This document shows, one piece after another, positions 26,158 through 49,652 of a stretch of 64,000 bases of DNA (the stretch's first letter is position 1; each line of letters opens with the position of its first letter). The position numbers and the translations under genes were made by a program. Under the pieces are notes generated by a model. The model was not told the DNA's origin. It saw nothing but the letters and a program-made list of their open reading frames with translations, and did no database searches. The stretch covers positions 97,499 to 161,498 of the forward strand of contig CAZSUU010000005.1 in the NCBI GenBank assembly GCA_964610105.1. Direction: 5' to 3'. The DNA comes from an uncultured Verrucomicrobiota bacterium. Lineage in GTDB: Bacteria > Verrucomicrobiota > Kiritimatiellia > PWTM01.

Positions 26158-26841
26158 CTATTTGGACGGGCACTTCTTCAGGCACATGAACCAGTCGAGA
26201 CACTTCACGTCTTCGTCCGGCTTCTCCATGCGATCCTTCGCCGTGCCGCAGGAACCCGGAGGCGGCACGATCACGTCGTCGCCCGGCTGCCAGTTGGCGG
26301 GCGTCGCGATCTTGAACTGGTCCGAGTACTGCATGGCCACCAGCAGGCGCTTCACCTCGTCCATGTTCCGCCCGTTCGAGAGCGGGTAGTACAGGATCGC
26401 CCGGACGATGCCGTTGGGGTCGATGATGAACACCGCCCGGACGGCCTGGGTGTTGCTGGCGCCCGGCTGCAGCATGCCGAAGGCCTTCGACACCTCCATC
26501 GTCAGGTCGCTGATCACCGGGAACATGACCTCGACGTTCTTCATGTCCTTGTAGGCGATCTTCTCCTTGATCGTCCGCAGCCACGCGATGTGGCTGTAGG
26601 TGCTGTCGATCGAGAGGCCGAGCAGCTTGCAGTTCAGCTTCTCGAACTCCGGCGCCATCGTGGCGAAGGTCATGAACTCGGTGGTGCACACCGGCGTGAA
26701 GTCCGCCGGATGCGAGAAGAACACGACCCACTTCCCCTTGAAGTCGTCCGGAAAGTTGATCGGTCCCTGCGTCGTCTCCGCCTTGAAGGCCGGGGCCTTC
26801 TCCCCGATCAGGGGCAAGCGTACGGTTCCTTCTTCACACAT
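26158..26841 (-). CDS. Peroxiredoxin (Prx6/archaeal-type)
   Basis: 'FFSHPADFTPVCTTEF', 'GRNMDE', 'ATPANW', C-terminal 'CLDWFMC'. Confidence 0.93.
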   Translation of the reverse strand: MCEEGTVRLPLIGEKAPAFKAETTQGPINFPDDFKGKWVVFFSHPADFTPVCTTEFMTFATMAPEFEKLNCKLLGLSIDSTYSHIAWLRTIKEKIAYKDMKNVEVMFPVISDLTMEVSKAFGMLQPGASNTQAVRAVFIIDPNGIVRAILYYPLSNGRNMDEVKRLLVAMQYSDQFKIATPANWQPGDDVIVPPPGSCGTAKDRMEKPDEDVKCLDWFMCLKKCPSK

Positions 26842-26970
26842 GGTCTTTCCCTTTCCTGGTTGCGGTTCTCTTGTCTTCTCAGAGCGCCTCAATCTCCGTC
26901 AAAATCCGCGTCTTTCAAGTCCGTTTGTGGCAGCCTGCCATCACTTCTCCGCCGCGAGTTGCCTCGCATG

Positions 26971-28668
26971 CTATTTTTCGCGTTTGAACGGCCACGCCAC
27001 GATGCCCCCTTCCATCACTTTCACATGACGCCACCCATGCGCATGCAGCAGGCTTGCCGCCTCGTATCCGCGCAGGGAAATCTTGCAGAAACAGATGATC
27101 TCCTTGTCCTTATCCTTGGGAAAGTCATCGAGGCGCTTTCGCAGGGCGCCGAGGGGGATGAGCACCTCCCCGATGCCGAGCCTCATCTGCTCGTACTCGG
27201 CGGGATCGCGCGTATCGAGAAGGAACATGTCCTCGCCGGCATCGGCCTTTCGCTTGACTTCACTGCACGAGATCCCGGCCATGCGCCCGTGCATCTTGTT
27301 CTCCAGCGCGTGTGCCGCGGTGATCATGTTGTCGATCGCGGGAGAGAACGGCGGGGCGTAGGGCAGGTCGGCGACGGTCAGGTCGGTGACCGACAGCTTG
27401 CCGTGCAACGCCATGGCGGCACAGGCCAGGCGTTTGCTCACGTCGCCGGTGCCAATACACTGAACCCCCAGCAGCCGTCCCGTGTCCTTCTCGGCCACCA
27501 TCTTCATGATGAGCAATTTGCCCCCCATGAAACCCGGCTTGTCGGGAGCGGCTGTCAACACGCTCGCCGTTTTAAGACCCGCACGGTGCGCGGCGGTCTC
27601 CGAGAGACCGGTGGCTCCGGCCGCATAGTCGAACACCTTGCAGACTCCCGTCTGCAGCGTTCCGGGGAACTTCGCGCACGGCCCCGTGATCACGTTCTGC
27701 CCGACGATTCGTCCCTGAAGATTGGCCAGATCGCCGTACGGCGCATGAACGCGGGCGCCGGTGATAAGGTGGGGAATCTCCACACAGTCCCCCGCGGCAT
27801 AGATGTCGGGATCGGACGTCTGCATGAATTCGTTCACTAGGATGCCGCCCTTGTGCCCCACCTCGAGGCCGGCATGCTTCGCAAGCTTCCCGTTGGGCCT
27901 GACGCCGGTGGCCACCACGGCCAGCTCGCACGGGAGCTCGGTGCCGTTCCTCAGCCGCACGCTCGTGAGCTTGCCGTTCTCGCCCAGGAATGCGGCAACG
28001 GGGTTGTCCGTGACGATATGTGCGCCCTTGGCCCGCATGTGATTCTCAACCAGCCGGGCCATCTCCCAATCCAGGAACATCAGGATCTGCGGCATCATCT
28101 CGACCACGGTGATGGCGATTCCCGCCAGGTGCAGGGCTTCACAGGTTTCGACCCCGATCAGCCCGCCCCCCACCACGACCGCCCTTTTGATCCGGTGCTC
28201 GTCACGAATCCGGCGCAGGTAGTCGGCATCCCGCATGGACTGCAGCGTGGAGATGCCCTCGAGATCCCTTCCCGGAACCGGCGGCACGATGGGCGTCGCG
28301 CCGGTGGCCAGAACCAGCCGGTCGTAGGGGATCTCCTTCGGTTCGCCCCCGCTGGCCGCGCGACAGTGGACGACATGCCGCTCCCGGTCTATCGAGACCG
28401 CCTCGGTCTCCGTCAAGGCGGCGATCCCCTTGGCGTTCATGTAGTACAGGGGATCGCGCACCGCCCCGGTGGGCGTGCACAGCAGTTGGTTGCGATCATT
28501 GAAGACTCCGCCGACATAGTAGGGATAACCGCACGAGGCCATGGACAGGTCGGGATCCTTCTGGATGATGGTGATCTCCGCGTGCTGATCCATGCGGCGA
28601 GCCTTGGCGGCGGTCTTGGGCCCCGCGGCCGAACCCCCGATGATGACGATGCGCTTCACGTTCTTCAT
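26971..28668 (-). CDS. CoA-disulfide/persulfide reductase with C-terminal rhodanese domain
   Basis: 'GGSAAG', redox Cys 'SMASCGYPY', 'VVGGGLIG', 'LPYAPPFS', rhodanese 'CFCKISLRG', 'MEGG'. Confidence 0.9.
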   Translation of the reverse strand: MKNVKRIVIIGGSAAGPKTAAKARRMDQHAEITIIQKDPDLSMASCGYPYYVGGVFNDRNQLLCTPTGAVRDPLYYMNAKGIAALTETEAVSIDRERHVVHCRAASGGEPKEIPYDRLVLATGATPIVPPVPGRDLEGISTLQSMRDADYLRRIRDEHRIKRAVVVGGGLIGVETCEALHLAGIAITVVEMMPQILMFLDWEMARLVENHMRAKGAHIVTDNPVAAFLGENGKLTSVRLRNGTELPCELAVVATGVRPNGKLAKHAGLEVGHKGGILVNEFMQTSDPDIYAAGDCVEIPHLITGARVHAPYGDLANLQGRIVGQNVITGPCAKFPGTLQTGVCKVFDYAAGATGLSETAAHRAGLKTASVLTAAPDKPGFMGGKLLIMKMVAEKDTGRLLGVQCIGTGDVSKRLACAAMALHGKLSVTDLTVADLPYAPPFSPAIDNMITAAHALENKMHGRMAGISCSEVKRKADAGEDMFLLDTRDPAEYEQMRLGIGEVLIPLGALRKRLDDFPKDKDKEIICFCKISLRGYEAASLLHAHGWRHVKVMEGGIVAWPFKREK

Positions 28669-28681
28669 GGACTCCTTCCGC

Positions 28682-29161
28682 TCAGCCTGAGATTCTCAGA
28701 ACCCCGGTCCGACCATCGGGATTCAGCTTCACGTCGAACTTGCGCAACGACGTTTTCGCGAAACCCTTTTTCCGGGCGCCATCCGTGCCGAAGGTGGAAT
28801 GCCCGAGGCTCGCGCAACGGAACTGGTTGTCTTTGTGCCGGTATTCGACCTCGGCGCCACGATGCGGGCAGAGCAGGGAAACGGCGGCGTATTCCGAGTC
28901 GCCGATCCGCCCGATGATCATCGGCTGGGGCAGGCGGGGATCGATCACCTTCACCGCCCCTCCGACCGCTCTCAGCTCCGGCACCTTGTCCAGGGAGACG
29001 GTGACCGTCCGGCCATCGATGGCATACGCGTCGGTCGCGATGGCCGGCGTGTTCCCGATCTTGGTGAAGGTGGCGCACCCGGTGGCGCCGCACAGACACG
29101 CGCCCGCGCCCGCCGCGGCGGCCAGCCCGGTGATGAAGTCCCTGCGGTTGATCTCTGTCAT
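28682..29161 (-). CDS. Tat-exported Rieske 2Fe-2S domain protein
   Basis: 'RRDF' Tat motif; 'CPHRG' and 'FRCASLGHSTF'. Confidence 0.8.
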   Translation of the reverse strand: MTEINRRDFITGLAAAAGAGACLCGATGCATFTKIGNTPAIATDAYAIDGRTVTVSLDKVPELRAVGGAVKVIDPRLPQPMIIGRIGDSEYAAVSLLCPHRGAEVEYRHKDNQFRCASLGHSTFGTDGARKKGFAKTSLRKFDVKLNPDGRTGVLRISG

Positions 29162-29199: not shown

Positions 29200-30489
29200 T
29201 CAGTGGTCACAGACATTATCTCCGGTTTGAAGCGTGCCGGCGAGATAGGCTTCCACCAGCGCTTCCGGCGTCTCCGCCGGGGCGCCGACCTGGACCGCGA
29301 TGCCGTTTTGCTTGAACAGCGCCTGCGCCCGGCTGCCCATCCCACCGGCTATGATCATGGTCGCGCCTTGCTCGTGCAGCCATCGCGGCAGCACTCCCGG
29401 TTCGTGGGGTGGCGGATCGAGCATCCGCTTGCCCACGATCTTCTTCGTCTTCTCGTCCACCTCCACCAGGGCGAACTGCTCGCAGTGTCCGAAATGCATG
29501 CACAGCTTCCCTTCCGCCACCGGTATCGCAATCTTCATGATGTCTCCTGTTTCCTTCTGGCTCACCGCAGTCTCGGAAACGTCCTTGGTCTCGTCCGCCC
29601 GAACCAGTATCTGCGCGGTCACCCGCTCAAAGGCCTTGGCCGTCTCCGTCCGCCCATAGTGGTAGACGAACGGCATGCCGGCATCGCACGCCTCGCCGAC
29701 TGCCGGGTCGATCGGGATGCGGCCGAGAAAGGGCACGCCCGTCTCCCGCGCCATCTGTTCCCCGCCGCCCGACTTGAAGATATCCGTGACCTCCCCGCAC
29801 TTCGGGCAGACGAATCCGCTCATGTTCTCGACGACGCCCAGCACGGGCAGGTTCAGCTGCCGGCAGAAACCGATGGACCGGCGGACATCGGCGGTCGACA
29901 CCTCCTGCGGCGTGGTGACCACGATCGCCCCGTCCGCGTTCTGCACCAACTGGCACACCGACAGCGGCTCGTCGCCCGTCCCCGGCGGCGAATCGATCAC
30001 CAGGTAGTCCAGCTCGCCCCAGTCCACATCCTGGAGGAACTGCCGGATGACGTTCATCTTCATCGGCCCCCGCCAGATCACCGCGTCGTCGGAGTTCCGG
30101 AGCAGGAAGCCGATGGACATGATCTTCAGCCCGGCCTTCGCCACCGGTTGAATCGCGCCGTCCCTGACCTGGGCCCGCGCGTCGTCCAGCCGCAGCATCT
30201 TGGGGATGCTGGGGCCGTGGATGTCGACATCCAGCAGGCCGACCTTCCTTCCCGCGAGGGCGAGCGAGATCGCCAGGTTCGCCGCGACCGTGCTCTTGCC
30301 CACCCCGCCCTTGCCGGAGAGGACGATGATCTTGTGTCGAATCAGGCCCATGCGCTCCTGGAGCGCCTTGTGTTCGAGCCACGCGTCGAGGGACTGTTCC
30401 TCGCCGCGGGTCGTCGAGGGGCCGGCCGCCCCCTGCCCCGCCGCGCAACCCATATTCTCCGCCTCACGCTTTCCGCTGTCGTCTGCCAT
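29200..30489 (-). CDS. Mrp/NBP35 (ApbC) Fe-S carrier ATPase fused to NifB/NifX domain (Mrp-ORP type)
   Basis: 'SGKGGVGKST', 'DVDIHGPS', 'IWRGPMK', 'DSPPGTGD', 'FVCPKC'; C-terminal 'MKIAIPVAEGKLCMHFGHCEQF...GGMG'. Confidence 0.92.
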   Translation of the reverse strand: MADDSGKREAENMGCAAGQGAAGPSTTRGEEQSLDAWLEHKALQERMGLIRHKIIVLSGKGGVGKSTVAANLAISLALAGRKVGLLDVDIHGPSIPKMLRLDDARAQVRDGAIQPVAKAGLKIMSIGFLLRNSDDAVIWRGPMKMNVIRQFLQDVDWGELDYLVIDSPPGTGDEPLSVCQLVQNADGAIVVTTPQEVSTADVRRSIGFCRQLNLPVLGVVENMSGFVCPKCGEVTDIFKSGGGEQMARETGVPFLGRIPIDPAVGEACDAGMPFVYHYGRTETAKAFERVTAQILVRADETKDVSETAVSQKETGDIMKIAIPVAEGKLCMHFGHCEQFALVEVDEKTKKIVGKRMLDPPPHEPGVLPRWLHEQGATMIIAGGMGSRAQALFKQNGIAVQVGAPAETPEALVEAYLAGTLQTGDNVCDH

Positions 30490-30510: not shown

Positions 30511-31347
30511 TCAGAACTCGAACCTCGTGCCGGCGCCGCCGGCCAGGCATTTCGCGCCGAAGGCCGTCTGCATGGCCGCCGCGGCCCTCTCCCCCGTGCA
30601 GTGCAGGGGGCAGAGGACCCCGACATCCATCCGGCACAGCGCGTCGACGGTCCACGCGATCCGCGCATCGGACGCCGCACGCAGGTGCATGCCGCCGATT
30701 ACGGCGCGCAGGGCCTGGCCCTCCGCCAGGTGCCGGACACGGTCCAGGGTGTTGATCACGCCGGCATGCGCGCAACCCAGCAGCACGACGAGGCCGGATG
30801 GCGTCAGCACGTACAGCGCCTGGTCGTCGACCACCGGATCGCCGCGCCCGCCGTCCTCGTCCAGAAAAAACCCCTCTTCGCCGCGTTCCTCGGCGTGCCG
30901 CCGGGGAATCACGCCGGTCAGGAAGACGCCCGCCGCAATCTCGGTCGGTTTCTCGACCGGACAGAACCGCACCTGCGGACGGCGCAGGGCCTCGCGGGCG
31001 CGACCGGGAATCCCGATATAGCGCGCGACGGAACCCGCCCGGTGGTACTTGGACGGGAGGGCGTCCGGATGAAGATAGACGGCGACGGGCCCCGCCACGC
31101 ACGCCAGCACGTCCGCCAGCCCGCCGGTGTGATCGTAATGACCGTGGCTCAGCGCGATCGTGTCGACGGCGCCGAGGTCGATGCCCAGCGCCGTCGCGTT
31201 GGCGCACACCAGGCCGCTCTGCCCCGTATCGAAAAGAACGCGGTCCGTGGCGGTTTCGATCCAGAAGGCCAGCCCGTGTTCCGACCCCACGTCGGGGCGG
31301 GCGGCGCGGTTCTCCACGAGGACGGTGATGTTCACGTTCAGGGGCAT
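30511..31347 (-). CDS. MBL-fold metallo-hydrolase
   Basis: 'SEHGLAF', 'LFDTG', 'LSHGHYDHTGGL', 'DDQAL', 'GCAHAG', 'GGMHL', 'HCTG'. Confidence 0.88.
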   Translation of the reverse strand: MPLNVNITVLVENRAARPDVGSEHGLAFWIETATDRVLFDTGQSGLVCANATALGIDLGAVDTIALSHGHYDHTGGLADVLACVAGPVAVYLHPDALPSKYHRAGSVARYIGIPGRAREALRRPQVRFCPVEKPTEIAAGVFLTGVIPRRHAEERGEEGFFLDEDGGRGDPVVDDQALYVLTPSGLVVLLGCAHAGVINTLDRVRHLAEGQALRAVIGGMHLRAASDARIAWTVDALCRMDVGVLCPLHCTGERAAAAMQTAFGAKCLAGGAGTRFEF

Positions 31348-32213
31348 AGCGCCTCCCATACGGCCCGGACGTCGGCCCCCGCGACCGTCGCAGGCAGCTC
31401 GACCACCGCCTTGCCCCGCACCTGCGCCTCCGTGACCGCGCGATCGTAGCGGACGCGCCCCGCCAGCCGCGCGCCTCTGGCCCGCGACTCCCCCTCGATC
31501 CGCTCCGCCATCTCCGGGTTCAGGTCCCACTTGTTCACGCACACGGCCGCGGGGATCCCGAAGTGGCCCGTGAGGTCCAGGACCCGCGCCAGATCGTGCG
31601 CGCCCGAAAGGGTGGGCTCGGTGACCACGACCACAAGGGATGCGCCCGTGATCGAGGCGATCACCGGGCAGCCGATCCCCGGGGGGCCGTCGACAAGGAC
31701 GACGTCCGCCTTCCGCTCTCCGGCCAGCGACCGGGCGGTCTCCCGCACCTGGCTGACCAGCTTGCCCGAGTTCTCGCCGCCGGGATTCAGACGGGCGTGG
31801 ACCATGGGGCCGTGCCGGGTGTTCGAAACGTACCACTCGCCGGCCTCGCGCTCGCGGAAGTCGATCGCCTTGACCGGGCAATGGTCCACGCACACCCGGC
31901 ATCCTTCGCAGGCGGTCGGATCGATCGAGAAATCCGCCTCGCCCGCCCGGCCCGGACCCTTCCTCACCGCGCCGAACCGGCATCGCGCGAGGCAGGCGCC
32001 GCAGCGGAGGCAATCCGCCCGCCGGATGGCCGCCTCGTGCCCGCAGCGAAACGGCTCGCGGCGGAGAATCTCCGGCGCCAGCACCAGGTGCAGGTCGGCC
32101 GCATCGACGTCGCAGTCGGCCAGCACGGCCTTCCGCGCCAGCGCGGCGAAGGAGGCAACGATGCTCGTCTTGCCGGTGCCGCCCTTGCCGCTGATGACCA
32201 CGATTTCCTTCAT
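31338..32213 (-). CDS. MinD-superfamily P-loop ATPase with 4Fe-4S insert (orp-type)
   Basis: 'ISGKGGTGKTS', 'DCDVDAADLH', 'CLRCGAC..RC', 'CEGCRVC..HCP', 'NSGKLV', 'DGPPGIGCP'. Confidence 0.92.
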   Translation of the reverse strand: MKEIVVISGKGGTGKTSIVASFAALARKAVLADCDVDAADLHLVLAPEILRREPFRCGHEAAIRRADCLRCGACLARCRFGAVRKGPGRAGEADFSIDPTACEGCRVCVDHCPVKAIDFREREAGEWYVSNTRHGPMVHARLNPGGENSGKLVSQVRETARSLAGERKADVVLVDGPPGIGCPVIASITGASLVVVVTEPTLSGAHDLARVLDLTGHFGIPAAVCVNKWDLNPEMAERIEGESRARGARLAGRVRYDRAVTEAQVRGKAVVELPATVAGADVRAVWEALCP

Positions 32214-33103
32214 GGATGCGACCGTCGATTCGATCCCTTCGCTCCGTTCCGAGAGTCTTTCACCACCAGCGCACCCACGGGGGCGCCGATGACCTCCGCG
32301 ATCTTGGGGCACTTGACGGTGAGCAGGAAGAACACGTTCTTATGGGTGTCCGACAAGGTCTCGTAGTTGCCCTGGCCTTTGGCGACGATCAGATCGGCGC
32401 GGTCAAACCGGGAACGGAACTCCTCCGAGCACTCCTCGATCACCGTGCCCGGCGCGTCGGATCCGTTGTCGATGACCGGGGCGATGCGAGAGATGCCGGC
32501 CACCTCCGCGTCGGGCCGCGTGGCGTCGTTGATCGCCGGAGCCCCGCGCACAACTACCGTCACCCTCCCGCGGGGAAGCGCCTCGACCAGCAGGCGGTCG
32601 AAGACGATCTCGCCCGCATTGTCCGCGAGGTAGAGGATGCGGCGGGCGCGATCGGCGGCCCGGAACAGGGCGGCGACGCTGCCGACCAGCGGCATGTCCC
32701 ATATTCCATCCAGGTGCGCCGGCAGGTCCTCCGGGGCGAGGCGGTTCTTCGACCCGGCATCCAGCAGGTTCCCGGCGATCGCCATGCGCACCGCGGCCTC
32801 GCGCGGATTGCGATGGCGGCGAGCGGCGACGCTCATGGCGGGCAGCAGGTCCAGGGCCATCCGGTTCATCCGATCCTTGAGCGGACGGTAGGGGTCCGAC
32901 TGTCCGGTTTCTTCGCGGATCAGCCGCTGGATGCGTTGTGAAATCGCCACCGGCATGACCGCCCAGTCGGCGTCGGCGATCTCGTACAGCAGACGGCGCA
33001 GGATGCGTTCCTGCCGCCGCTTCCCGACCGCCGACATCTCGACGGCCTCCACCGCCTGGCGGACAAAGCACGGAATGCATTCAAGAGCAGTTTTCATCTT
33101 CAC
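32210..33103 (-). CDS. DUF89/ARMT1-like damage-control phosphatase
   Basis: 'CIPCF', 'DPY..K', 'AGNLLD', 'DNAGEI.FD', 'KGQGNYE'. Confidence 0.9.
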   Translation of the reverse strand: MKMKTALECIPCFVRQAVEAVEMSAVGKRRQERILRRLLYEIADADWAVMPVAISQRIQRLIREETGQSDPYRPLKDRMNRMALDLLPAMSVAARRHRNPREAAVRMAIAGNLLDAGSKNRLAPEDLPAHLDGIWDMPLVGSVAALFRAADRARRILYLADNAGEIVFDRLLVEALPRGRVTVVVRGAPAINDATRPDAEVAGISRIAPVIDNGSDAPGTVIEECSEEFRSRFDRADLIVAKGQGNYETLSDTHKNVFFLLTVKCPKIAEVIGAPVGALVVKDSRNGAKGSNRRSHP

Positions 33104-34733: not shown

Positions 34734-34744
34734 ATCCCGCATTC

Positions 34745-40687: not shown

Positions 40688-40817
40688 GTTCTCCAGCCGA
40701 ACGGCATTCCTTCTCCGACACGACGATCACGATGCCGTACGCGCCCGCCGGCCAGGCCGCGGGCCCCGCGGCCCGTTCGGGCCGATAGGCCGCGGAATGC
40801 CGATCGAGCCACAACAG

Positions 40818-41075: not shown

Positions 41076-41078
41076 GGG

Positions 41079-41432: not shown

Positions 41433-41434
41433 GA

Positions 41435-42634: not shown

Positions 42635-42639
42635 ACGGA

Positions 42640-43638
42640 TCACTCCGTGGGACTCGCGCGATCTTCGCGGTCCCGGTTGGATTTGGGGGCGGCGCGGAAG
42701 TAGACTTCCCCCCCGCGCCACTCGGGTTGGATGCGATGCGTACGCACCAGTTCGCCCGTGTGTTTCGAAACCTCGTTCACGTGCATGCCGAACGCCTTCC
42801 CGATCTCCAATGTCGTGCATGGACGCCGTCGAAGCAGATCCAGAATGGCGGTCTGGCCGGCGGCGACGCCCGCGCCATTGTGTGCGGGGAAGCCGGCAAT
42901 GACCTTGCCCGGCGGTCGAAACGTTGCGGCAAGAACCTCCATGCCTCCGTGATCCAAGGGCAACACCGACTGCTCCGCGGGGGGGCGCACAGCCGTGTTG
43001 AGATGGATCTCATCCGGCGCCAAGGATTCGACGATCCGGGCGATCTTCTTCACATCCTCGGGACGGGAGTTCACCCCTTCGATGAGAAAGACCTCGATCC
43101 ACAGCCGGCCGTGGAAGGCATGCCGGAAGGCGCGTTGTCCCTCGATCACCCGCTCAAAGTCGATGCCCGGATGCGGCCGGTTGACACGCTGGAACGAGGA
43201 CTGATCCCATGCGCTGAGCGAAAGCTTGACGAGTGCGGCGTGTCCCGCAGCTTCTCGCACGTCCGGCAGCCAGAACAACGTGCCGTTGGACAGCAGGGCC
43301 GTCGGAATGTCGGTTCGCGCCCGGATGAACTGGAGCACGTCTCCGAACCGGGTGTGCAATGTCGGTTCCCCGGACCCGGAGAGGGTAATGTAGTCCGCTC
43401 TCGCGCCTTCTCCGATCCAATTCTCCATTTCCGCTTCAACGACCGCCGTCGGCACATACTCCCTGCGCTCGATCGTCCTGCGGGTGGTCCGCCCCAGCTG
43501 GCAGAAAACGCAATCCAGCGAGCAGGTCTTGAACGGAGTCAGATCCACACCCAGCGACCTCCCCAGCCGCCGAGAAGGCACCGGCCCGAACAGATACCGA
43601 TACTCGCGCCGCGCGCGCGTCTGGATGCCCGTCAGCAT
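42640..43638 (-). CDS. Radical SAM Fe-S oxidoreductase
   Basis: 'FGPVPSRRLGRSLGVD', 'CSLDCVFC', 'SGSGEPTL'. Confidence 0.9.
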   Translation of the reverse strand: MLTGIQTRARREYRYLFGPVPSRRLGRSLGVDLTPFKTCSLDCVFCQLGRTTRRTIERREYVPTAVVEAEMENWIGEGARADYITLSGSGEPTLHTRFGDVLQFIRARTDIPTALLSNGTLFWLPDVREAAGHAALVKLSLSAWDQSSFQRVNRPHPGIDFERVIEGQRAFRHAFHGRLWIEVFLIEGVNSRPEDVKKIARIVESLAPDEIHLNTAVRPPAEQSVLPLDHGGMEVLAATFRPPGKVIAGFPAHNGAGVAAGQTAILDLLRRRPCTTLEIGKAFGMHVNEVSKHTGELVRTHRIQPEWRGGEVYFRAAPKSNRDREDRASPTE

Positions 43639-44279
43639 GGCGAACCGCCCGGTTTCCTTCCGCGAATGACCACGAACGATCCCGCCCCAAATCCGGCCCG
43701 CACGGGGTCGGGCGCCCGCATGGTATCGGGATGCATGAAGAGTGTCTGGCAATAGTCCAGTTCTGTGAAGCCATTCTGGGCCAGGAGTTCCGAGACCTCC
43801 GACGTGGCGAACAGGTGCGCGTTGCGATAGAAAGCGCTGGATTGCCGTTGGCACTCGTAGTCCTGCCCCAACGGGCTCTGGCGATCCACGAAGGCCACCA
43901 CCGCACAGCCGCCCGTGCGAAGGACACGGAGCACTTCCTGAACGCTCTTCACCGGGTCATCCACAAAACACAGCGTGGTCACCATCAGCACGGCATCGAA
44001 CCGATCCCCCGGGAAGGGCAGATGCTCGGCTGTGCCTTCTATGGCGTGGACCCCACGCTTCAAGGCCGCCCTGCGCATGGCGGCGGACGGCTCGATGGCG
44101 GCGGCAATTCCAAACGAAGCCGCAAAATGGCCCGCTCCAGAGCCCACTTCAAGACCCTCGCATGTCGGCGGCCAGAACGTGCGTATCGCGTTCAACTCGG
44201 ACTGAAACGCCGCGGCGTGTCGTTCGAACCACGACTCGTAGCGGTCCGCGTGTTGTTCAAATGCTTCCGTCTTCGGCAT
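43632..44279 (-). CDS. Class I SAM-dependent methyltransferase
   Basis: 'YESWF', 'GLEVGSGAGHF', 'AEHLPF', 'EVLRVL..GG'. Confidence 0.88.
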   Translation of the reverse strand: MPKTEAFEQHADRYESWFERHAAAFQSELNAIRTFWPPTCEGLEVGSGAGHFAASFGIAAAIEPSAAMRRAALKRGVHAIEGTAEHLPFPGDRFDAVLMVTTLCFVDDPVKSVQEVLRVLRTGGCAVVAFVDRQSPLGQDYECQRQSSAFYRNAHLFATSEVSELLAQNGFTELDYCQTLFMHPDTMRAPDPVRAGFGAGSFVVIRGRKPGGSPC

Positions 44280-44301
44280 CCAGAAACCAGGGCGGAACAA
44301 T

Positions 44302-44658
44302 TTAGAAGGTGATGATCTTGTCGCTTTCGACAACCCATTGGGCCAGGTCGGGCATGGTCGCTTTCTCGGCGCCATCGAAGTACGGATGATTTCGGTGAAC
44401 GCCGCATCGAGCCATGCAGGTCCCGCAGACCTTGACCACGACGCCCCTGGAAATGAGAGCCTTGAGCATCTGCGACAGGTCTTGATCATAGCCTTCCGGT
44501 GGCTTGCACACGTCGCGCGCCAGGTCCACGGCATCGTTCATCAGGAAGATCCGCACCTCCTGCCCTGTTTCCAGCAGTTTCCCTGCCAGGCGCAGGCCAT
44601 TCCACGTCACGTCCGTATTGTCGTACGGCGGACGGTTGAAGACGATCAGGATACGCAT
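44302..44658 (-). CDS. DsrE/F-like sulfur-relay protein (YchN-like)
   Basis: 'NRPPYD', 'FLMNDAV', 'VCGTCMARCG', 'SDKIITF'. Confidence 0.85.
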   Translation of the reverse strand: MRILIVFNRPPYDNTDVTWNGLRLAGKLLETGQEVRIFLMNDAVDLARDVCKPPEGYDQDLSQMLKALISRGVVVKVCGTCMARCGVHRNHPYFDGAEKATMPDLAQWVVESDKIITF

Positions 44659-44666
44659 ATCTTGCG

Positions 44667-44903
44667 CTACTGCCGCGTCATCGCCGCGCCGCAGGCGGGG
44701 CACTGGACCTGCGTGCAAGGCACCCCGCGCTGGTGCGGCACGGACTTCCCGCACTTCGGACAGACGCACGTGCCGCCGGCGCCGAATCCCAGTCCGCCCA
44801 TCCGGCCCCCGCCCTGACCCCTCCCCATACCGCCTCCTCCGCCCATGCCCCGGCCGCTGCCCGGCCCGGCGCCCATCGGTCCCGTTCCATTTCCGCGTGG
44901 CAT
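44667..44903 (-). CDS. Small DUF5320-like Gly-rich protein with C-terminal zinc ribbon
   Basis: 'MPRGNGTGPMG', 'CVCPKCG...PC..VQCPACG'. Confidence 0.8.
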   Translation of the reverse strand: MPRGNGTGPMGAGPGSGRGMGGGGGMGRGQGGGRMGGLGFGAGGTCVCPKCGKSVPHQRGVPCTQVQCPACGAAMTRQ

Positions 44904-44912
44904 GTGCTTCCC

Positions 44913-45293
44913 CTATGGCTCTGACTTCTCTGCTTCGAGTTGTTCGATCCGCTTGCGGAGATCACCCAGCGTACCTTCCAGGAACTCCGCCTGGCCCTTC
45001 ATCGCGTCCAGCTGCTGCTCGCGGGAAGGCATTCCAGCCGGGGGCAAGGCTCCGCCCCACGCCGGCCCGCCCGCCGCCGCGCGCTGCCATCCGGTCAGGC
45101 CCGTGGCGTAGAACATGTTCCGCCATCCGCGCCCTCCTCCCCGACCGCCGCGCCCTCGTCCGAATCCCATTCCGAATCCGCGGCCGCCGCCTCGGTTCGC
45201 GTATCCGGGCATCCCGAATCCCGCGCAGAATCCCGCGGCCCTTCCGGTCATAGGCCCCATACCCAGGGGTCCCGTTCCATCTCCTGCTGGCAT
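44913..45293 (-). CDS. DUF5320 family protein
   Basis: 'MPAGDGTGPLGMGPMTGRAAGFCAG', 'GRGWRNMFYATGLTGW', coiled C-terminus. Confidence 0.88.
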   Translation of the reverse strand: MPAGDGTGPLGMGPMTGRAAGFCAGFGMPGYANRGGGRGFGMGFGRGRGGRGGGRGWRNMFYATGLTGWQRAAAGGPAWGGALPPAGMPSREQQLDAMKGQAEFLEGTLGDLRKRIEQLEAEKSEP

Positions 45294-45316
45294 GACTGTC
45301 TCCTTCTGTGTTTCTC

Positions 45317-45883
45317 TCACATTCGGCGCGGCCGTCGAGCGAGGCTCGCGCCCGCTCGGCCCGCCGCGCCCCTTTTCTGAACGCGCACGCTCTTCCGCCC
45401 GTAGCCGCGCCGGCCCCGCCGGCGGGCGGTTCCCTCGTCCACCTCGTCCTGCCACCCGTTTCGCGTCGCTTCGATCCGGTCGAACTTCGCGGTGTAGGGC
45501 TTGATGTCGAGGAGCGGCGTCCCGTCCAGGACATCCAGACCGTCCACGTAAAGGACACGGCCCGCGCGCCGGATCAGCCGCACGACGCTCAATCCGAGGG
45601 GATTCGGACGGCAGGGCGCGCGCGTCGCGAACACCCCCCGCTCCACGTCCTGCAGATACGGCTTCACGGTCAGCCGGCACGGTCCCGCCCTGTGGAACGC
45701 GTAGAGAAGGTATACGTGGGAGAATCCCTCCAGGTCCCGCAGGCCATCGGCGTACTTCGCGAGGACCTCCACCCGACCCCTGCATCCCCCGGCGTAGGCC
45801 GGCTGGATCGGCGTGCGCTCCGGGACCGTGTGTTCGCTGCGGATCGTCCCGATCGGCTTGAAGACCATGCCCCCGCGACTCAT
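45317..45883 (-). CDS. tsaA: tRNA (N6-threonylcarbamoyladenosine37-N6)-methyltransferase TrmO/TsaA family
   Basis: 'LEGFSH', 'GVFATRAPCRPNPLGLS', 'LDGTPLLDIKPY'. Confidence 0.88.
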   Translation of the reverse strand: MSRGGMVFKPIGTIRSEHTVPERTPIQPAYAGGCRGRVEVLAKYADGLRDLEGFSHVYLLYAFHRAGPCRLTVKPYLQDVERGVFATRAPCRPNPLGLSVVRLIRRAGRVLYVDGLDVLDGTPLLDIKPYTAKFDRIEATRNGWQDEVDEGTARRRGRRGYGRKSVRVQKRGAAGRAGASLARRPRRM

Positions 45884-46242
45884 AGCCAGTGCCCCTCCGC
45901 GTTGGCCGCCGCGGCCTCCTTCAACGCGCCGGCCTTGAACTGGCGGACGGCGTCGGCCACCGTGCCTTCGCCGGCCAGGTACATCTTGACGCCCGCCGCC
46001 GCGAGGACGCGAAACGCCTTGGGACCCACGTGGCCCGTGATCACCGCCTCCACCCCCAGCCGCGCGACCGCCTCCCCCGCCTGAATGCCCGCGCCCTGCG
46101 CCGCATTCAGGTTCATGGCGTTGTCGTGGCAGGCCCACTCGCCCGACTCCGTGTCGACGATCAGGAAATGCCGGGCCCGCCCGAATCGCGGATCGATGGC
46201 GCTCGACAAGTCCGTGCCCATGGACGCTATGGCAATCTTCAT
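45880..46242 (-). CDS. NifB/NifX-family protein (orange protein ORP-like)
   Basis: 'MKIAIAS', 'DPRFGRARHF', 'AQGAGIQA', 'GHVGPKAF'. Confidence 0.9.
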   Translation of the reverse strand: MKIAIASMGTDLSSAIDPRFGRARHFLIVDTESGEWACHDNAMNLNAAQGAGIQAGEAVARLGVEAVITGHVGPKAFRVLAAAGVKMYLAGEGTVADAVRQFKAGALKEAAAANAEGHWL

Positions 46243-46691
46243 TCGTGCATCCTCCCGAATCCGGCATTCCGCTGTCCGCGTCCGCCACAACCCCACCCCC
46301 GTCCGCCTCCGCCCCGGCCTCCACCGCCGCCTCCGCCGCCGCGGCAGCGTCGCCGTCCGAAGCAGCCCGGCATGCTCAGCGTCGGGTCCGGCAGGCCTCC
46401 GGACAGCCATGCGGCCAACACCTCCTCCACCGCCCCGGCCGTGAACGGAACGACGCGGATGCCCGTATCGGCCAGCGTCGCGGCCATCGGCTGCGAGAGA
46501 GCGCCGCAGATCAACACCTCCGGCCCCACCGCCGCCAGCCCGTTCGCCTGGGCGCGTGGATCCGTCCCCGGCAGCTCGGCCTCGCGCCGCCCGACGATGC
46601 GCCCCCCCTCGATGTCGACCACCTCGACCCTTCGCGCGACATCGAAAACCGGAGAGATCCTCCCGTTCCACGTGGTCAGCGCCAGCCTCAC
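46239..46691 (-). CDS. NifB/NifX-family protein with Gly-rich tail
   Basis: 'RISPVFDVAR', 'LICGALS', 'MPGC', tail 'GGGGGGGRGGGGRG'. Confidence 0.85.
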   Translation of the reverse strand: MRLALTTWNGRISPVFDVARRVEVVDIEGGRIVGRREAELPGTDPRAQANGLAAVGPEVLICGALSQPMAATLADTGIRVVPFTAGAVEEVLAAWLSGGLPDPTLSMPGCFGRRRCRGGGGGGGGRGGGGRGWGCGGRGQRNAGFGRMHE

Positions 46692-46726
46692 GGTCTCGTT
46701 TCCCTTCCGCTCATGCCCGCTGTAGT

Positions 46727-46743
46727 ATCAGGAATCGTGCCAA
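46727..46743 (-). promoter_or_regulatory. Candidate sigma54 -24/-12 promoter (TTGGCACGATTCCTGAT)
   Basis: -24 TGGCAC perfect; -12 reads TGA instead of TGC; 36 nt upstream of the first NifX-like gene. Confidence 0.55.
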
Positions 46744-46825
46744 CCGCCGACGCGCGGAGCGCGATGGTCACAGCACGTTGCGGCGCCGTGGTTTACGAAT
46801 TGCCTGCGAGCGCGGCACCAAGCGA

Positions 46826-46851
46826 ATACAGTCGCGTTGTAGCGACTGTAT
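46826..46851. promoter_or_regulatory. Perfect 10-bp inverted repeat, candidate enhancer (UAS) for the adjacent sigma54 activator
   Basis: ATACAGTCGC-gttgta-GCGACTGTAT, about 85-110 nt upstream of the -24 element. Confidence 0.5.
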
Positions 46852-46893
46852 CGTGCGGTTAAAGAAGCGAGAACGCGACGGTATATCGCCGGC

Positions 46894-48258
46894 CTACTCG
46901 GAGTTGCCGGGCGACTGGAAGAGCAGGAAGAACCGATCCGCGGCCGGCGGATCGAGTTCCCGGACGAAGGCGAAGCCGGCCTGCCGAAGGTCCTCTTTCA
47001 CGAGGCCCGGTGCGATGCGACGGCGATGTCCGGACAGGCGACGCGGTTCGTCCGGCGGCCCGGCGCGATCGAGCACGGCCACGTAGCCGCCGGTGTCGAG
47101 CGATGCCCGAAGGCGACGCAGGAGGGGCGCAGGATCCCAGAGGCGGCTGTAGGCGTCGGCGAAGACCGCGGCATGAAGGACACCGTTGGTGAGGCCGGGC
47201 AGATCGCCCTTCGCCGTTCGGAAGATGGAGACCGCGGCGAGCCCGGCCGCATCCGCGCAGGCCGCCGGCCGTTCGTTCGTGACGGTGGTCCACTCCTCGA
47301 GGATCACGTCATGGACGTGCGCGCCCGGCCCGGACACCGCCCGGAGAGGCTCCAGCAGGGCCCGGCCGCGATCCACCCCTGCGAAGAGCGTGCGACGGTG
47401 TTCGCCGGAGATGGGCGGAAGGGCGGAGACCGCCTTGCGGACGTCGATCTCCGAGGGCAGATCGGGATCGCCGGCGGTCGTCGCGGCTTCGGCGGACGGC
47501 TTACGAAACACCAGGACGAACGGCCGGGGCTCGTGCCACAGGTCGTCGAGGAGGGTTTCGAACCGGAACCCCGCCTCGCGCGCGAGTCTGACCACCGTCG
47601 TCTCCCCGGTCCAGTAGTGCTTTCGCTCGCGCACCGCCATGTCCACCCACTCCCGCTGCGGTCCCTCCTCGCGATCGACGATGACGAGGAATCCGCCCGG
47701 TTTCAGGTCCTCCCGGAGCCGGGCCAGCATGCTCACGGGTTTGGCGAAATGGTGGAACACGGCATTCATGTAGACCAGGTCGACGGCGCCGTCGGGCAGG
47801 CAGGGATCCTCGGTTCCGCCCAGCAGGGCCACGACCTGGTCCAGGCCGCGTTCCTTCGCCCTGCGCAGAAGGTTCGTCTGCATGGCGCCGGTGATCTCCT
47901 CGCTGAAGACCTTCCCGGTCGGACCGACGATCTCCGCGAAGGTGAAGGTGTCCGCTCCCCCGCCGGCGCCCACGTCGGCGATCGACGCGCCCGGACCCAC
48001 CCCGAGCCGCTCGCAGACGCGCCGGAGCGCGTCCGCCCGCTTCCGGGCGGACTCCGCCGCGGCGGTCCGGGCCGGCGAATTCGTGATCCCAGGGCCTGCC
48101 GACGACGCCGGGGCATCGGCGCCGCGCCCCGCGACAGCGATCAGGCAGAGACATGCCGGCAGTGCGCAGCGCATCCATCTTGCCACGGAGGAGAACACCG
48201 GCATGCAGGGGGACATCCCCCGGCCCGACGGTCCCGGCATCCGACCTCGATCGTTCAT
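46894..48258 (-). CDS. Signal-peptide-bearing SAM methyltransferase with duplicated (degenerate) second domain
   Basis: 'LCLIAVAG', 'IADVGAGGG', 'LKPGG.L...DR'; second copy 'LDTGGYVAVLDR...AGF.F'. Confidence 0.75.
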   Translation of the reverse strand: MNDRGRMPGPSGRGMSPCMPVFSSVARWMRCALPACLCLIAVAGRGADAPASSAGPGITNSPARTAAAESARKRADALRRVCERLGVGPGASIADVGAGGGADTFTFAEIVGPTGKVFSEEITGAMQTNLLRRAKERGLDQVVALLGGTEDPCLPDGAVDLVYMNAVFHHFAKPVSMLARLREDLKPGGFLVIVDREEGPQREWVDMAVRERKHYWTGETTVVRLAREAGFRFETLLDDLWHEPRPFVLVFRKPSAEAATTAGDPDLPSEIDVRKAVSALPPISGEHRRTLFAGVDRGRALLEPLRAVSGPGAHVHDVILEEWTTVTNERPAACADAAGLAAVSIFRTAKGDLPGLTNGVLHAAVFADAYSRLWDPAPLLRRLRASLDTGGYVAVLDRAGPPDEPRRLSGHRRRIAPGLVKEDLRQAGFAFVRELDPPAADRFFLLFQSPGNSE

Positions 48259-49652
48259 GGGCCGGCCTCCTCGCGCGAGCGGCCGTCCTTCTCCGGGAGC
48301 ACGATGCCGGCGGCGCGGATCTTGCGGAAGAGCGTGCTCTTGTGGATGCCGAGCGCCCGCGCGGCGGCGAGGCGGTTGAATCCACTCCGTTCGAGCGCAG
48401 CGCGGATCGCCTGCGCCTCCGCGGCGCGAGTCCGGAGCGAGAGGGTGTCGCCCGCCGCCGCGGGCGCCGGAGGGCTGGAGCCGGCGAGCTCGGGGGGCAG
48501 ATGCCCGCGCTCGATCCTCCCCGAGCCGCAGAGCACGAAGGCGCGCTCCACGATGTTCTCCAACTCCCGCACGTTGCCCGGATAGTCGTGCGCCATGAGG
48601 AGGGCCAGGACATCCGGCGCGACGCCCGACACGGACCGGTTCTGCACCCGGTTGAAGCGCGCGACGAAGTGGTCCACGAGCAGCGGAATGTCCTCCCTGC
48701 GTTTCCGGAGCGGGGGAAGATCCAGCTTCACGACGTTCAATCGGTAATAGAGATCCTCCCGGAACGTCCCCTTGCGCATCAGGGCGGCCAGATCCCGATG
48801 GGTCGCGGCGACCACCCGCACGTTCGCGCGTCGCGACTGGGTCCCGCCCAGCGGTTCGTAGGACCGGTCCTGGAGCACGCGCAGCAGGCGGACCTGGAGC
48901 GCGGGACTGATGTCGCCGATCTCGTCGAGGAAGATCGTCCCGCCCTCCGCCCGGTCGAAGCGGCCGGGCTTGTCGCGCGTGGCGCCGGTGAACGCCCCTT
49001 TCACGTAGCCGAACAGCTCGGACTCCAGCAGCGTATCGGGCAGGGCGCCGCAGTGGACCGGCACGAACGGCCCTTTCGCGCGCGGGCTCAGCCCGTGGAG
49101 GGCGCGCGCCAGCAGCTCCTTGCCGGTCCCGGTCTCCCCGTGGATGAGCACCGTCGCGTCGCTGGCCGCGATCTGCGGAAGGAGGTCGAAGACGCGGCGC
49201 ATGGAGGCGCTCCGACTGACCAGGTCGCCCGCCTGGAACCGGCCTTCCAGCTCCTTGCGCAGCTCCTCCACGAGACTGAGGTCGCGGAAGGTCTCCGCGC
49301 CGCCGGTGATCCGCCCCCGCGCATCGCGGAGGATGGCGGTCGATACGGCGACGGGAATCCGGCGCCCCGCGGCGTTGACGATGAACCCGGACTTGTTGAT
49401 CACCGGCCGACCTGTCCTGACGGTCTGCCGCAGCGCGCATTCCGCCTCGCACATGCTGGCGCGGAAGACGTCGGAGCAGGTCCGGCCGATGGCGTCGCGG
49501 CGGCGGATGCCCGTGATGGTCTCGGCGGCGCGGTTGAAGGACGTGATGTGCCATTCGGCATCGACGGTGAACACGCCGTCCGAAATGCTCTCCAGGATCG
49601 CCTCGGCGCCCGTGCCGAGCGCGTGTCCCGCTTTCGTCATGCGACGGCCCAT
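48255..49652 (-). CDS. PAS-domain sigma54-dependent transcriptional activator (OrpR-like)
   Basis: PAS 'ILESISDGVFTVD', 'FNRAAE.ITG', 'CEAEC'; 'GETGTGKE', 'ESELFGY.KGAFTGA', 'FREDLYYRL'; Fis-type HTH. Confidence 0.95.
   Translation of the reverse strand: MGRRMTKAGHALGTGAEAILESISDGVFTVDAEWHITSFNRAAETITGIRRRDAIGRTCSDVFRASMCEAECALRQTVRTGRPVINKSGFIVNAAGRRIPVAVSTAILRDARGRITGGAETFRDLSLVEELRKELEGRFQAGDLVSRSASMRRVFDLLPQIAASDATVLIHGETGTGKELLARALHGLSPRAKGPFVPVHCGALPDTLLESELFGYVKGAFTGATRDKPGRFDRAEGGTIFLDEIGDISPALQVRLLRVLQDRSYEPLGGTQSRRANVRVVAATHRDLAALMRKGTFREDLYYRLNVVKLDLPPLRKRREDIPLLVDHFVARFNRVQNRSVSGVAPDVLALLMAHDYPGNVRELENIVERAFVLCGSGRIERGHLPPELAGSSPPAPAAAGDTLSLRTRAAEAQAIRAALERSGFNRLAAARALGIHKSTLFRKIRAAGIVLPEKDGRSREEAGP

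Follow-up and report, generated by a model that had tools for sequence, protein, structure and literature searches.

What does an orange-protein (orp) gene cluster do in a bacterium that is not a known sulfate reducer, and why should so many further genes accompany it? The question is raised by a 64,000-nt stretch of DNA from an uncultured bacterium (the window, meaning the whole stretch analysed), in which a series of minus-strand genes between positions 26158 and 49652 combines orp genes with genes for sulfur, metal and redox proteins. Since 2011, work on the Orp complex has concerned one sulfate reducer, Desulfovibrio vulgaris Hildenborough (DvH), where its regulator and one iron-sulfur (Fe-S) carrier have been characterised. 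The orp genes themselves have already been described as anaerobe-wide (PMC3897727).

An initial annotation of the window had proposed an expanded, self-contained orp-like island in a non-sulfate-reducer context, acting in metal and sulfur cofactor assembly and as a redox-stress regulon. Here, we describe the genes, the promoter and the neighbourhood comparisons that bear on this proposal. In our reading, the array is probably an operon, induced at low redox potential through an OrpR-like activator and sigma54, for assembling or trafficking Fe-S or heterometal-sulfide clusters, with a sulfur and metal supply of its own.

The orp core

For comparison, 80 genomic loci (handles beginning with L) were fetched through MrpORP, the fusion protein of the cluster, and searched with all window proteins. 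Counts refer to genes within 10 kb of MrpORP, and the subset from the Planctomycetota-Verrucomicrobiota-Chlamydiota (PVC) superphylum comprises the 18 loci with enough flank. The coordinates of all features, the evidence for each and most of the counts are collected in Table 1.

The window's MrpORP scores 559.7 bits on the NCBI equivalog NF041136 (cut-off 450), and its motifs GKGGVGKS (Walker A), CPKC, CMHFGHCE and DPPPHEPGVLP match those given for the DvH protein (PMC6345978). ORP1 finds the Desulfovibrio gigas orange protein in the PDB (2wfb, 1.2e-19), along with TM1290 and MTH1175, and the NifX-like ORPs of the window, which correspond to DVU2107 and DVU2108 in type, are in syntenic position relative to Desulfobacterota loci. 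Each of the two MinD-like ATPases has a ferredoxin insert. In paralogue b, a single canonical ferredoxin motif is accompanied by a second Fer4 stretch; the order b then a is retained in most loci that hold both. In divergent-type loci (L085), a DUF5320 protein heads the MinD pair in a position like that of DVU2105 (Orp5) in DvH, the comparison being one of position only.

The PAS motif of the activator, TCSDVFRASMCEAEC, reads C-S-D-x6-C-x3-C, with the spacing of C52, D54, C61 and C65 in DvH OrpR, where three cysteines and an acidic residue of the PAS domain hold a redox-sensing [4Fe-4S] cluster (PMC8359166). The same cysteine triad is found in 22 of 24 activators that adjoin orp genes in other genomes. 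Because the MrpORP equivalog, the match of ORP1 to 2wfb, the two MinD-ferredoxin ATPases, the OrpR cysteine motif and a conserved sigma54 promoter (see below) all agree, the locus is, by its gene content, a genuine orp (orange-protein complex) locus with MrpORP, ORPs, MinD-ferredoxin ATPases and an OrpR-like activator. All four orp gene types named in the initial annotation (PAS-sigma54 activator, NifX-family ORP, two MinD-like ATPases and Mrp-ORP fusion) are thereby borne out by domain matches and, for the fusion, by the equivalog.

Promoter and activator

The TGGCACG-N5-TG element ahead of ORP2 occurs once in the 64-kb window. We compared the regions upstream of ORP2 homologues in the window and in 26 non-identical loci (PVC, Planctomycetota, Syntrophales and Anaerolineales) and found a -24/-12 element at the equivalent place in 25 of the 27, against 1.4 in shuffled sequences. 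The core of the candidate enhancer, AGTCGC-N(4-14)-GCGACT, is likewise present once in the window, a match that 13 of 100 shuffles also yield. Its half-sites, GCGACT and AGTCGC, are enriched at a constant distance, -134 to -198, in the related loci, with 21 observed and 4.3 in shuffles. Judged by these counts, promoter, enhancer motif and OrpR cysteine triad are conserved across phyla.

No further sigma54 site was found in any intergenic gap of the array. Two candidates were rejected: a sigma54-like site upstream of orpR (TGGTAC...TTGCA), whose GG-to-GC spacing is 3 nt too long, and a site with one mismatch inside the methyltransferase gene MT1, at 33243, which has no enhancer and is of a kind that occurs at background frequency.

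OrpR of DvH works as an activator at low redox potential, while its [4Fe-4S] cluster is intact, and loses this activity on oxidation (PMC8359166). The idea of a redox-stress regulon therefore turns the switch upside down, and the window's activator would be expected to act at low redox potential.

An unbroken gene array

The window is about 70% GC, so raw lists of open reading frames (ORFs) are crowded with spurious frames. Genes were called with the guidance of codon usage and of GC content at third codon positions (GC3) and were then scanned with Pfam and NCBIfam. This gave 28 co-directional minus-strand genes in unbroken series from the peroxiredoxin gene to the start of the PAS-sigma54 activator, where about 27 had been counted before; about ten pairs have start/stop overlaps, of 4-34 nt. 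The minus-strand run overshoots these limits on both sides, from 21005 to 52329. Every domain type listed in the initial annotation was recovered, with small corrections to the gene calls. The ORF 40684-41055 is spurious, the true gene there encoding an 85-aa Zn_ribbon_8 protein; two small Gly-rich genes of DUF5320 type were added; the start of the gene for the pyridoxal-phosphate (PLP) enzyme was set to 42634, on the basis of an in-frame ATG in the gap sequence and a 399-aa homologue in L091; and the peroxiredoxin gene starts at 26841.

The layout begins with orpR and the methyltransferase gene MT3, followed by the palindrome and the sigma54 promoter, then 26 packed genes from ORP2 to the peroxiredoxin (Prx), and a hairpin at the end. 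No gene of the array lies on the other strand, and orpR is upstream and co-directional, so the divergent two-operon layout is not found here. From ORP2 to Prx, three gaps exceed 50 nt, preceding Prx (129 nt), the porin gene (175 nt) and ArsP_2 (about 130 nt). Two unrelated metagenome studies each have a single contig (20 kb and 16.8 kb) that covers positions 32168-49900; one differs from the window by no base and one by a single base, with even depth. Because two independent contigs agree to within one base at even depth, the array is not an assembly chimera.

The three gaps bring up the main rival to a single operon, namely that the array is a mosaic of independent units sharing an orientation. 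The ORP-proximal genes alone would then depend on OrpR and sigma54, and the ArsP_2-NifU pair, the porin-ZnuA-permease cassette and Prx would have promoters of their own, with unrelated jobs in metal homeostasis and peroxide defence. It is in keeping with such a mosaic that the gaps fall exactly ahead of ArsP_2, porin and Prx, that the four-gene metal cassette stands free in another genome, and that just downstream there are NikR and a second, complete ZnuABC set, as it is that GC3 is heterogeneous and accessory gene order differs between genomes. What speaks for a common unit is that the same accessory families lie beside MrpORP in dozens of genomes from several phyla, that many genes overlap, and that ArsP_2 is embedded in the orp clusters of relatives at other positions. 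Promoter and terminator scans of the window, which are uninformative for a GC-rich PVC genome, returned terminator-like sites at chance frequency and no sigma70-like site. We doubt the mosaic, although it is a real possibility.

Table 1. Features of the orp array, in the order of transcription. The last two columns give the number of loci with a homologue, among all 80 loci and among the 18 PVC loci. MT, methyltransferase; SAM, S-adenosylmethionine; TM, transmembrane helices; CoA, coenzyme A; TAT, twin-arginine translocation; ABC, ATP-binding cassette; MBL, metallo-beta-lactamase.
Feature	Position	Strand	Evidence or remark	Loci (80)	PVC loci (18)
OrpR-like sigma54 enhancer-binding protein (PAS, AAA+, HTH_8)	48255-49652	-	Pfam		
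MT3, signal-peptide-like N-terminus, second MTase-like half	46894-48174	-	Pfam, translation; between orpR and enhancer		
Perfect 10+10 palindrome ATACAGTCGC-N6-GCGACTGTAT, candidate OrpR enhancer (upstream activating sequence)	46826-46851	.	about 85 nt above the -24/-12 element		
Sigma54 -24/-12 promoter TGGCACGATTCCTGAT	46727-46742	-	35 nt upstream of ORP2 start		
ORP2: NifX-like domain, MPGC motif, cationic Gly/Arg tail (IssA/IssX-like)	46239-46691	-	PF02579		
ORP1: single-domain NifX-like orange protein	45880-46242	-	PF02579		
TrmO/TsaA-like SAM-binding protein	45317-45868	-	PF01980; TIGR00104 120 bits (cut-off 93); PDB 7btu, 2nv4	15	
DUF5320 protein, Gly/Arg-rich N-terminus, coiled-coil C-terminus	44913-45293	-	PF17253 7.5e-23	24	
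78-aa Gly-rich protein with CPKC...CPAC zinc ribbon	44667-44903	-			
DsrE/TusD-like sulfur carrier	44302-44658	-	PF02635	7	7
Class I SAM methyltransferase MT2	43632-44279	-	Pfam; ArsM models far under cut-off		
Radical SAM enzyme (CSLDCVFC), winged-helix-like C-terminal region	42640-43638	-	PF04055	24	10
PLP-dependent Cys/Met gamma-lyase or gamma-synthase family enzyme, 399 aa	41435-42634	-	PF01053 1e-110	15	10
PanD aspartate 1-decarboxylase	41079-41432	-	PF02261 1e-41	5	
Zn_ribbon_8 (FmdB-like) protein, 85 aa	40818-41075	-	homologues annotated PF09723 in L005, L091	12	
ArsP_2 10-TM permease	39659-40687	-	PF11449; NF037962 133.8 bits (cut-off 100)		
U-type Fe-S scaffold (NifU_N), Gly/Arg-rich DUF5320-like N-extension	38965-39591	-	PF01592	22	
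Outer-membrane porin-like beta-barrel with signal peptide, 417 aa	37536-38789	-	AF2 model and Foldseek		
ZnuA/TroA-type periplasmic metal-binding protein	36435-37499	-	PF01297		
Two ABC-3 permeases (35566-36438 and 34745-35569)	34745-36438	-	PF00950		
MinD-like ATPase with ferredoxin insert (Orp3/Orp4 type, paralogue b)	33888-34769	-	CbiA and Fer4 domains, Walker A, Cys motif	48	
Class I SAM methyltransferase MT1	33100-33921	-	Pfam		
DUF89/ARMT1 damage-control phosphatase family protein, CIPC N-terminus	32210-33097	-	PF01937 3e-56; PDB 2g8l, 2ffj	26	14
MinD-like ATPase with two CxxCxxCxxxC motifs (Orp3/Orp4 type, paralogue a)	31338-32213	-	CbiA/ParA and Fer4	55	
MBL-fold hydrolase, TM1679-like	30511-31347	-	Pfam; PDB 3h3e, 2p4z	47	17
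MrpORP: Mrp/NBP35 P-loop domain fused to NifX-like domain	29200-30489	-	NF041136 equivalog		
TAT-signal Rieske-like protein	28682-29161	-	weak Pfam matches, sequence		
CoA-disulfide/persulfide reductase fused to rhodanese domain (CoADR-rhodanese)	26971-28668	-	Pfam; PDB 6pfz 1.8e-140, 3icr, 3nta, 8a56	18	
1-Cys-type peroxiredoxin (PVCTTE)	26158-26841	-	Pfam, motif	16	7
GC-rich hairpin, 18-nt arms, 94% complementary	26110-26152	-	directly after Prx stop; likely 3' end of unit		

Orp neighbourhoods in other genomes

The locus had been called expanded, and a comparison with orp clusters across anaerobes had been recommended. Sulfur and metal genes do accompany the orp core in the window; most of the additions, however, recur beside orp genes in the 80 loci, above all in PVC genomes. 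A typical PVC cluster (L026, L031, L032) runs on one strand as ORP1-DUF5320-rSAM-PLP-NifU-DsrE-DUF89-MinD-MinD-MrpORP-Prx-MBL, where rSAM is the radical SAM enzyme, which in the loci mostly follows ORP1 and DUF5320. The PLP enzyme is 72-87% identical in its 15 loci. Prx is 73-92% identical in the PVC loci and mostly follows MrpORP directly. The pair PanD-Zn_ribbon_8 is shared with L005 and L091. Both orp layouts occur among relatives, L007, L063 and L085 being divergent and most others co-directional. By this count of neighbours, the accessory set is the usual PVC form of the orp neighbourhood, not something unique to the window.

A smaller group of features sets the window apart. MT1 is rare near orp genes (2 of 80 loci), MT3 has no homologue within 10 kb of MrpORP in any of the 80 loci, and the Rieske protein is absent from all of them. 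A sister contig of 12.7 kb (L091), with a porin 93% identical, has the same gene order as the window from the PLP lyase to the MBL hydrolase. On present gene content, the porin-ZnuA-two-permease cassette, the position of ArsP_2, the Rieske protein, MT3 and the rare MT1 are the lineage-specific part of the array.

One further relative has a different set of neighbours. In L093 (a 9.3-kb contig of ERZ22681045; MrpORP 77% identical), the MinD pair is separated from MrpORP by OsmC, ArsP_2 and a PS-decarboxylase-like gene; further along come two YeeE/Sulf_transp genes and one ferritin-like gene, a link to sulfur import and iron storage.

Base composition and origin

Most genes between 34.7 and 45.3 kb have a GC3 of 0.70-0.80, the exceptions being the PLP lyase (0.88) and the 78-aa Zn-ribbon gene (0.84). 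At the edges of the array the values are 0.83-0.91, and most flanking genes have 0.90-0.96. The AT-richer core that had been seen by eye, with a GC and codon-usage profile proposed as the check, is thus real and is located at third codon positions.

Does this composition betray a genomic island, in which the whole locus or just its low-GC3 core came recently and in one piece from a donor of lower GC? The contrast in GC3 between core and flanks would fit, as would the report that the Mrp/NBP35 family has been shaped by horizontal transfer (PMC6345978). The low-GC3 block nevertheless takes in canonical PVC orp genes (rSAM, NifU, DsrE and DUF5320), not just the inserted cassette. Genes with homologues in the fetched loci match PVC best, except ArsP_2 in the first 80-locus set, and in wider protein searches the nearest relatives of ArsP_2 and of the porin are also PVC. 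There is no tRNA in the 64-kb window, no integrase or transposase domain among 36 genes scanned with Pfam (21005-51802), and border repeats were not found at the edges. Read depth is even across the borders, which are formed by housekeeping genes (Sua5, S41 peptidase and PurE) and a NikR-linked second ZnuABC set. The metal cassette is missing from the orp clusters of more distant PVC genomes, and the sole close relative found, the sister lineage with 93% porin identity, shares the order over 12.7 kb. We regard recent acquisition as improbable, and of the word 'island' the deviating composition is what stands.

The closest homologues of MrpORP, porin and ArsP_2 are 65-93% identical and come from metagenome-assembled genomes (MAGs) of Kiritimatiellia, Verrucomicrobiota and Lentisphaerota. 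A prepilin/DUF1559 protein typical of PVC bacteria is encoded close by, and the sequence occurs in biogas, digester, wastewater and soil metagenomes. By these affinities, the host is an uncultured anaerobe of the PVC superphylum, Kiritimatiellia-like and not a known sulfate reducer, in line with the non-sulfate-reducer context named in the initial annotation.

Two observations concern the flanks of the array. Upstream of the transporter genes, 17246-20553 encodes C_GCAxxG_C_C, DUF362 and poly-ferredoxin proteins, which are further redox and Fe-S proteins. A marginal Rfam match to group II intron domains D1-D4 lies at 59143-59356 on the minus strand (35.4 bits, cut-off 32), in a lower-GC stretch at 57-61 kb; no reverse-transcriptase ORF was detected near it (about 59.2 kb), where there are several ORFs without family matches.

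A proposed function for the array

In the mechanism that we favour, OrpR with its [4Fe-4S] cluster would activate sigma54-dependent transcription at low redox potential. Sulfur would be mobilised by the PLP-dependent C-S lyase, the DsrE carrier and the CoA-persulfide reductase with its rhodanese domain. Metal would enter through the porin, ZnuA and the pair of ABC-3 permeases, energised by an ATPase from elsewhere, with ArsP_2 as a possible further route. Clusters would be built on the U-type NifU scaffold, with the radical SAM enzyme taking some part, and would pass via MrpORP to the MinD-ferredoxin/ORP complex. Anionic metal-sulfide species would be held by four proteins that have cationic Gly/Arg segments, the IssA-like ORP2 among them. 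Prx and the DUF89 protein may protect or repair, and PanD and DUF89 together hint at a link to CoA or pantetheine. The metal-uptake cassette would have been inserted by this lineage into the usual PVC orp neighbourhood.

Several points weigh against this proposal. Even for DvH, where a part in cell division was proposed, it is unsettled what the Orp complex does in the cell. We infer one operon and one regulon from gene spacing and a single promoter; the -12 triplet of that promoter is TGA, not TGC, and the palindrome AGTCGC-N6-GCGACT differs from the OrpR site of DvH (GGGCGYRTTTTGCGCCC). Promoters of an unknown PVC type could lie in the three internal gaps (129-175 nt). The dip in GC3 suggests a separate history for part of the array, the order of the accessory genes is shuffled between genomes, and the metal cassette, without an ATPase, is also found free-standing in the P0139 contig, far from any orp gene. 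The TrmO-like protein passes TIGR00104, an equivalog for a tRNA methyltransferase (m6t6A), and the roles given to the radical SAM enzyme, the TrmO-like protein, the MBL hydrolase, DUF89 and the methyltransferases are guesses.

What the comparison does establish is a pattern: orp genes outside Desulfovibrio are repeatedly accompanied by a U-type scaffold, a C-S lyase, DsrE, a CoA-persulfide reductase, rSAM, DUF89, MBL and Prx. These recurrent partners, together with the conserved promoter, enhancer and OrpR triad, point to metal-sulfur cluster supply rather than cell division. Cell division or positioning was the first role proposed for the DvH proteins, and on that view the MinD-like ATPases would be positioning factors at the cell pole and the accessory genes bystanders. 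Morphology is defective in orpR mutants of DvH, where MrpORP has a polar location and amphipathic helices like those of MinD are present in Orp3 and Orp4 (PMC8359166, PMC6345978); in the window, MinD models give weak matches. The conserved neighbours, however, include no division genes but comprise a U-type scaffold, sulfur carriers, a C-S lyase and a persulfide reductase, and MrpORP transfers Fe-S clusters in vitro (PMC6345978); a division role for the array seems to us quite improbable.

Returning to cluster supply, a bolder form can be stated, which we offer tentatively and think rather unlikely. The extended array would be a complete anaerobic pathway, not recognised until now, that handles inorganic metal-sulfide species and also stores them in the manner of IssA. 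The C-S lyase and a relay of CoA-persulfide, DsrE and rhodanese would supply sulfur, the porin/ABC route would supply metal, and a U-type scaffold and radical SAM enzyme would serve assembly. Anionic Fe-S polymers (thioferrate) or thiometallate clusters would be held on ORP2, DUF5320, the Zn-ribbon protein and the NifU N-extension and distributed by three P-loop ATPases, with the whole system switched by the Fe-S redox sensor OrpR. If this is true, a defined function would be assigned to the Orp complex across anaerobic phyla. The main value of the locus lies in the comparative pattern that it exposes, through which ideas on what the Orp complex does become easier to test, and cultured relatives that have the cluster, such as Victivallis vadensis (L045), could serve as models.

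Sulfur, scaffold and enzyme genes

Among the sulfur genes, the CoADR-rhodanese protein retains its active-site Cys46 and the rhodanese loop CKISLR, and by full-length similarity it is closest to persulfide and CoA-persulfide reductases. The NifU core alone spans 38965-39309, with its ligand motifs CGD, GCG and HC intact.

The radical SAM enzyme has an N-terminal GPVPSRRLGRSLGVDL motif ahead of CSLDCVFC. It reaches the cut-off of no NCBIfam model and has no relative in the PDB, and membership of NifB, MoaA or another family was rejected on these grounds. Likewise, an identity as ETHE1-type persulfide dioxygenase was rejected for the MBL hydrolase, whose PDB matches are TM1679-like.

Two observations concern genes near the activator. 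A Sua5/YrdC gene (t6A synthesis; 49836-50441) lies just upstream of orpR, which may be a coincidence or a link with the TrmO-like gene. The N-terminus of MT3 is signal-peptide-like (MRCALPACLCLIAVAGRGADA), its second MTase-like half is degenerate and its start codon is uncertain; a secreted SAM methyltransferase would be odd.

Cationic tails

ORP2 has a tail with 42% glycine and a pI of 11.7, and its homologues in the 26 related loci have the MPGC motif followed by a cationic Gly/Arg tail. The form MPGC(C)GRRR is seen in loci L007-L088, and the tail has a pI of 9-12 in most related loci. Similar Gly/Arg segments, starting MPxG-G-GP, are found in the DUF5320 protein, the Zn-ribbon protein and the NifU N-extension (39410-39591). 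In several Desulfobacterota loci, the ORP2 tail is fused to a CPxC Zn-ribbon, which is the separate 78-aa gene in the window.

The tail of IssA from Pyrococcus furiosus has been proposed to bind anionic thioferrate, and an uncharacterised 'IssX' clade has been noted (PMC5524996). The likeness of the tails suggests that ORP2, DUF5320, the Zn-ribbon protein and NifU may hold anionic metal-sulfide species, which is a lead, not a test.

The metal-uptake cassette and ArsP_2

The initial annotation had listed a metal ABC system with an outer-membrane protein. The porin, ZnuA and two ABC-3 permeases are indeed present, but no cognate ABC ATPase is encoded in the array; the lone LSGGE signature in the window, at 22182, belongs to another operon, whose ATPase gene (21823-22617) would be a candidate partner. 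The description 'self-contained' fails on this account. The ATPase-less porin-ZnuA-2xABC-3 cassette was found in four contexts, namely the window, L009, L091 and the P0139 contig, and its ZnuA-type protein has no His-rich loop.

The 417-aa protein has no Pfam or NCBIfam match. Its AF2 model (mean predicted local distance difference test score, pLDDT, 80) has about 17 strands by DSSP, and Foldseek matches it to OprP, OprO and OmpT at 5e-12, so that the protein models as a porin-like beta-barrel resembling these three. More than 1,350 homologues belong to this family, for which there is no Pfam model; every one of them carries the annotation 'hypothetical'. Kinship with the 377-aa protein of the second transporter was rejected, the two being unrelated.

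The 175-nt spacer upstream of the porin gene (38790-38964) shows 97% identity to its counterpart in the sister contig and contains an AATCGT-N13-ACGATT palindrome. A 60-aa ORF called there by others was rejected, since third codon positions are not enriched in substitutions relative to the sister contig. Upstream of the second transporter operon, at 25195-25280, there are TGTTACGATT-like direct repeats; these and the spacer palindrome may be shared metalloregulator sites. That second operon lies downstream on the same strand (21005-25838) and encodes NikR, the 377-aa protein, the PVC-type prepilin/DUF1559 protein and a complete ZnuA-ATPase-ABC-3 set, at a native GC3 of 0.92-0.96. NikR homologues are also found near the orp clusters of L015, L022 and L064.

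ArsP_2 sits within the orp clusters of L091, L093, L046 and L095, in some relatives elsewhere in the cluster than in the window, and NCBI also labels its homologues 'putative manganese transporter'. An island for arsenic or metalloid detoxification and methylation, with ArsP-type efflux, ArsM-like methyltransferases, a radical SAM enzyme with an ArsR-like HTH and thiol reductases, is hardly credible and was rejected: ArsP_2 does pass NF037962, 'arsenic efflux protein', the best weak matches of the three methyltransferases are ArsM-type models and the C-terminus of the radical SAM enzyme has a weak ArsR/SmtB match, but the methyltransferases reach 22-48 bits against ArsM cut-offs of 240-575, ArsR, ArsC, ArsB/Acr3 and ArsA are all missing from the Pfam and NCBIfam matches of the scanned window genes, and the ArsP_2 homologues of relatives, often inside orp clusters, have no ars genes beside them, the nearest candidate being an ArsR-type (HTH_5) regulator about 4.5 kb off in L095.

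Relation to known systems

The metal cassette resembles the cluster A-I importers TroABCD and ZnuABC in having a ZnuA-family binding protein and two ABC-3 permeases (compare TroA, TroC and TroD). It differs from them in lacking an ATPase gene and in the dedicated porin-like barrel in front, and its metal substrate is putative.

The CoADR-rhodanese protein matches, over its full length, NoxA-3 of Archaeoglobus fulgidus (6pfz), Npsr of Shewanella loihica (3nta), CoAPR of Enterococcus faecalis (8a56) and CoADR-RHD of Bacillus anthracis (3icr). With these CoA-persulfide and polysulfide reductases it shares the FAD/NAD domains, the C-terminal rhodanese domain, the active-site Cys and a C-x4-R loop. 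Its gene lies in an orp array rather than in a CstR-type sulfide-stress operon, and the substrate is putative.

ORP2 is like IssA and IssX in that an IPR003731/NifX-like domain is followed by a disordered, Gly-rich cationic tail, and MTH1175, which ORP1 matches, was the structural template used for IssA. The ORP2 tail is shorter than that of IssA and richer in Arg, Gly and Cys, has the MPGC motif ahead of it and is encoded in an orp operon.

With the orp1/orp2 operons of DvH (DVU2103-DVU2109), the window shares the MrpORP fusion with CXXC, CXHFGHCE and PPPHxPG, the NifX-like ORPs, two MinD-like ATPases with ferredoxin inserts, a PAS-sigma54 activator with a C-x8-C-x3-C Fe-S motif, and a sigma54 promoter with an upstream palindrome. 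In DvH there are two divergent operons around orpR, whereas the window has one co-directional array with about 20 extra genes; the activator reads GAFTGA here and GAFTDA in DvH, and the host is a PVC bacterium, not a sulfate reducer. In DvH, MrpORP passes Fe-S clusters to the Orp3-Orp4-Orp8 complex in vitro (PMC6345978).

Closest of all are the extended orp clusters of PVC bacteria (Kiritimatiellia, Verrucomicrobiota and Lentisphaerota MAGs; L026, L031, L032 and L007), which are known from automatic annotation only. Their genes all lie on one strand, with 50-92% identity, and they share ORP1, DUF5320, rSAM, the PLP lyase, NifU, DsrE, DUF89, the two MinD-ferredoxin ATPases, MrpORP, Prx, MBL, TrmO and CoADR. 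The window differs in that the porin-ZnuA-2xABC-3 cassette is inserted between NifU and the MinD-ferredoxin paralogue b, ArsP_2 and the PanD-Zn-ribbon pair are placed in mid-array, the Rieske protein, MT1 and MT3 are added, and the MinD gene pair is split by MT1 and DUF89. The window is one elaborate variant of the known orp system, not a unique invention.

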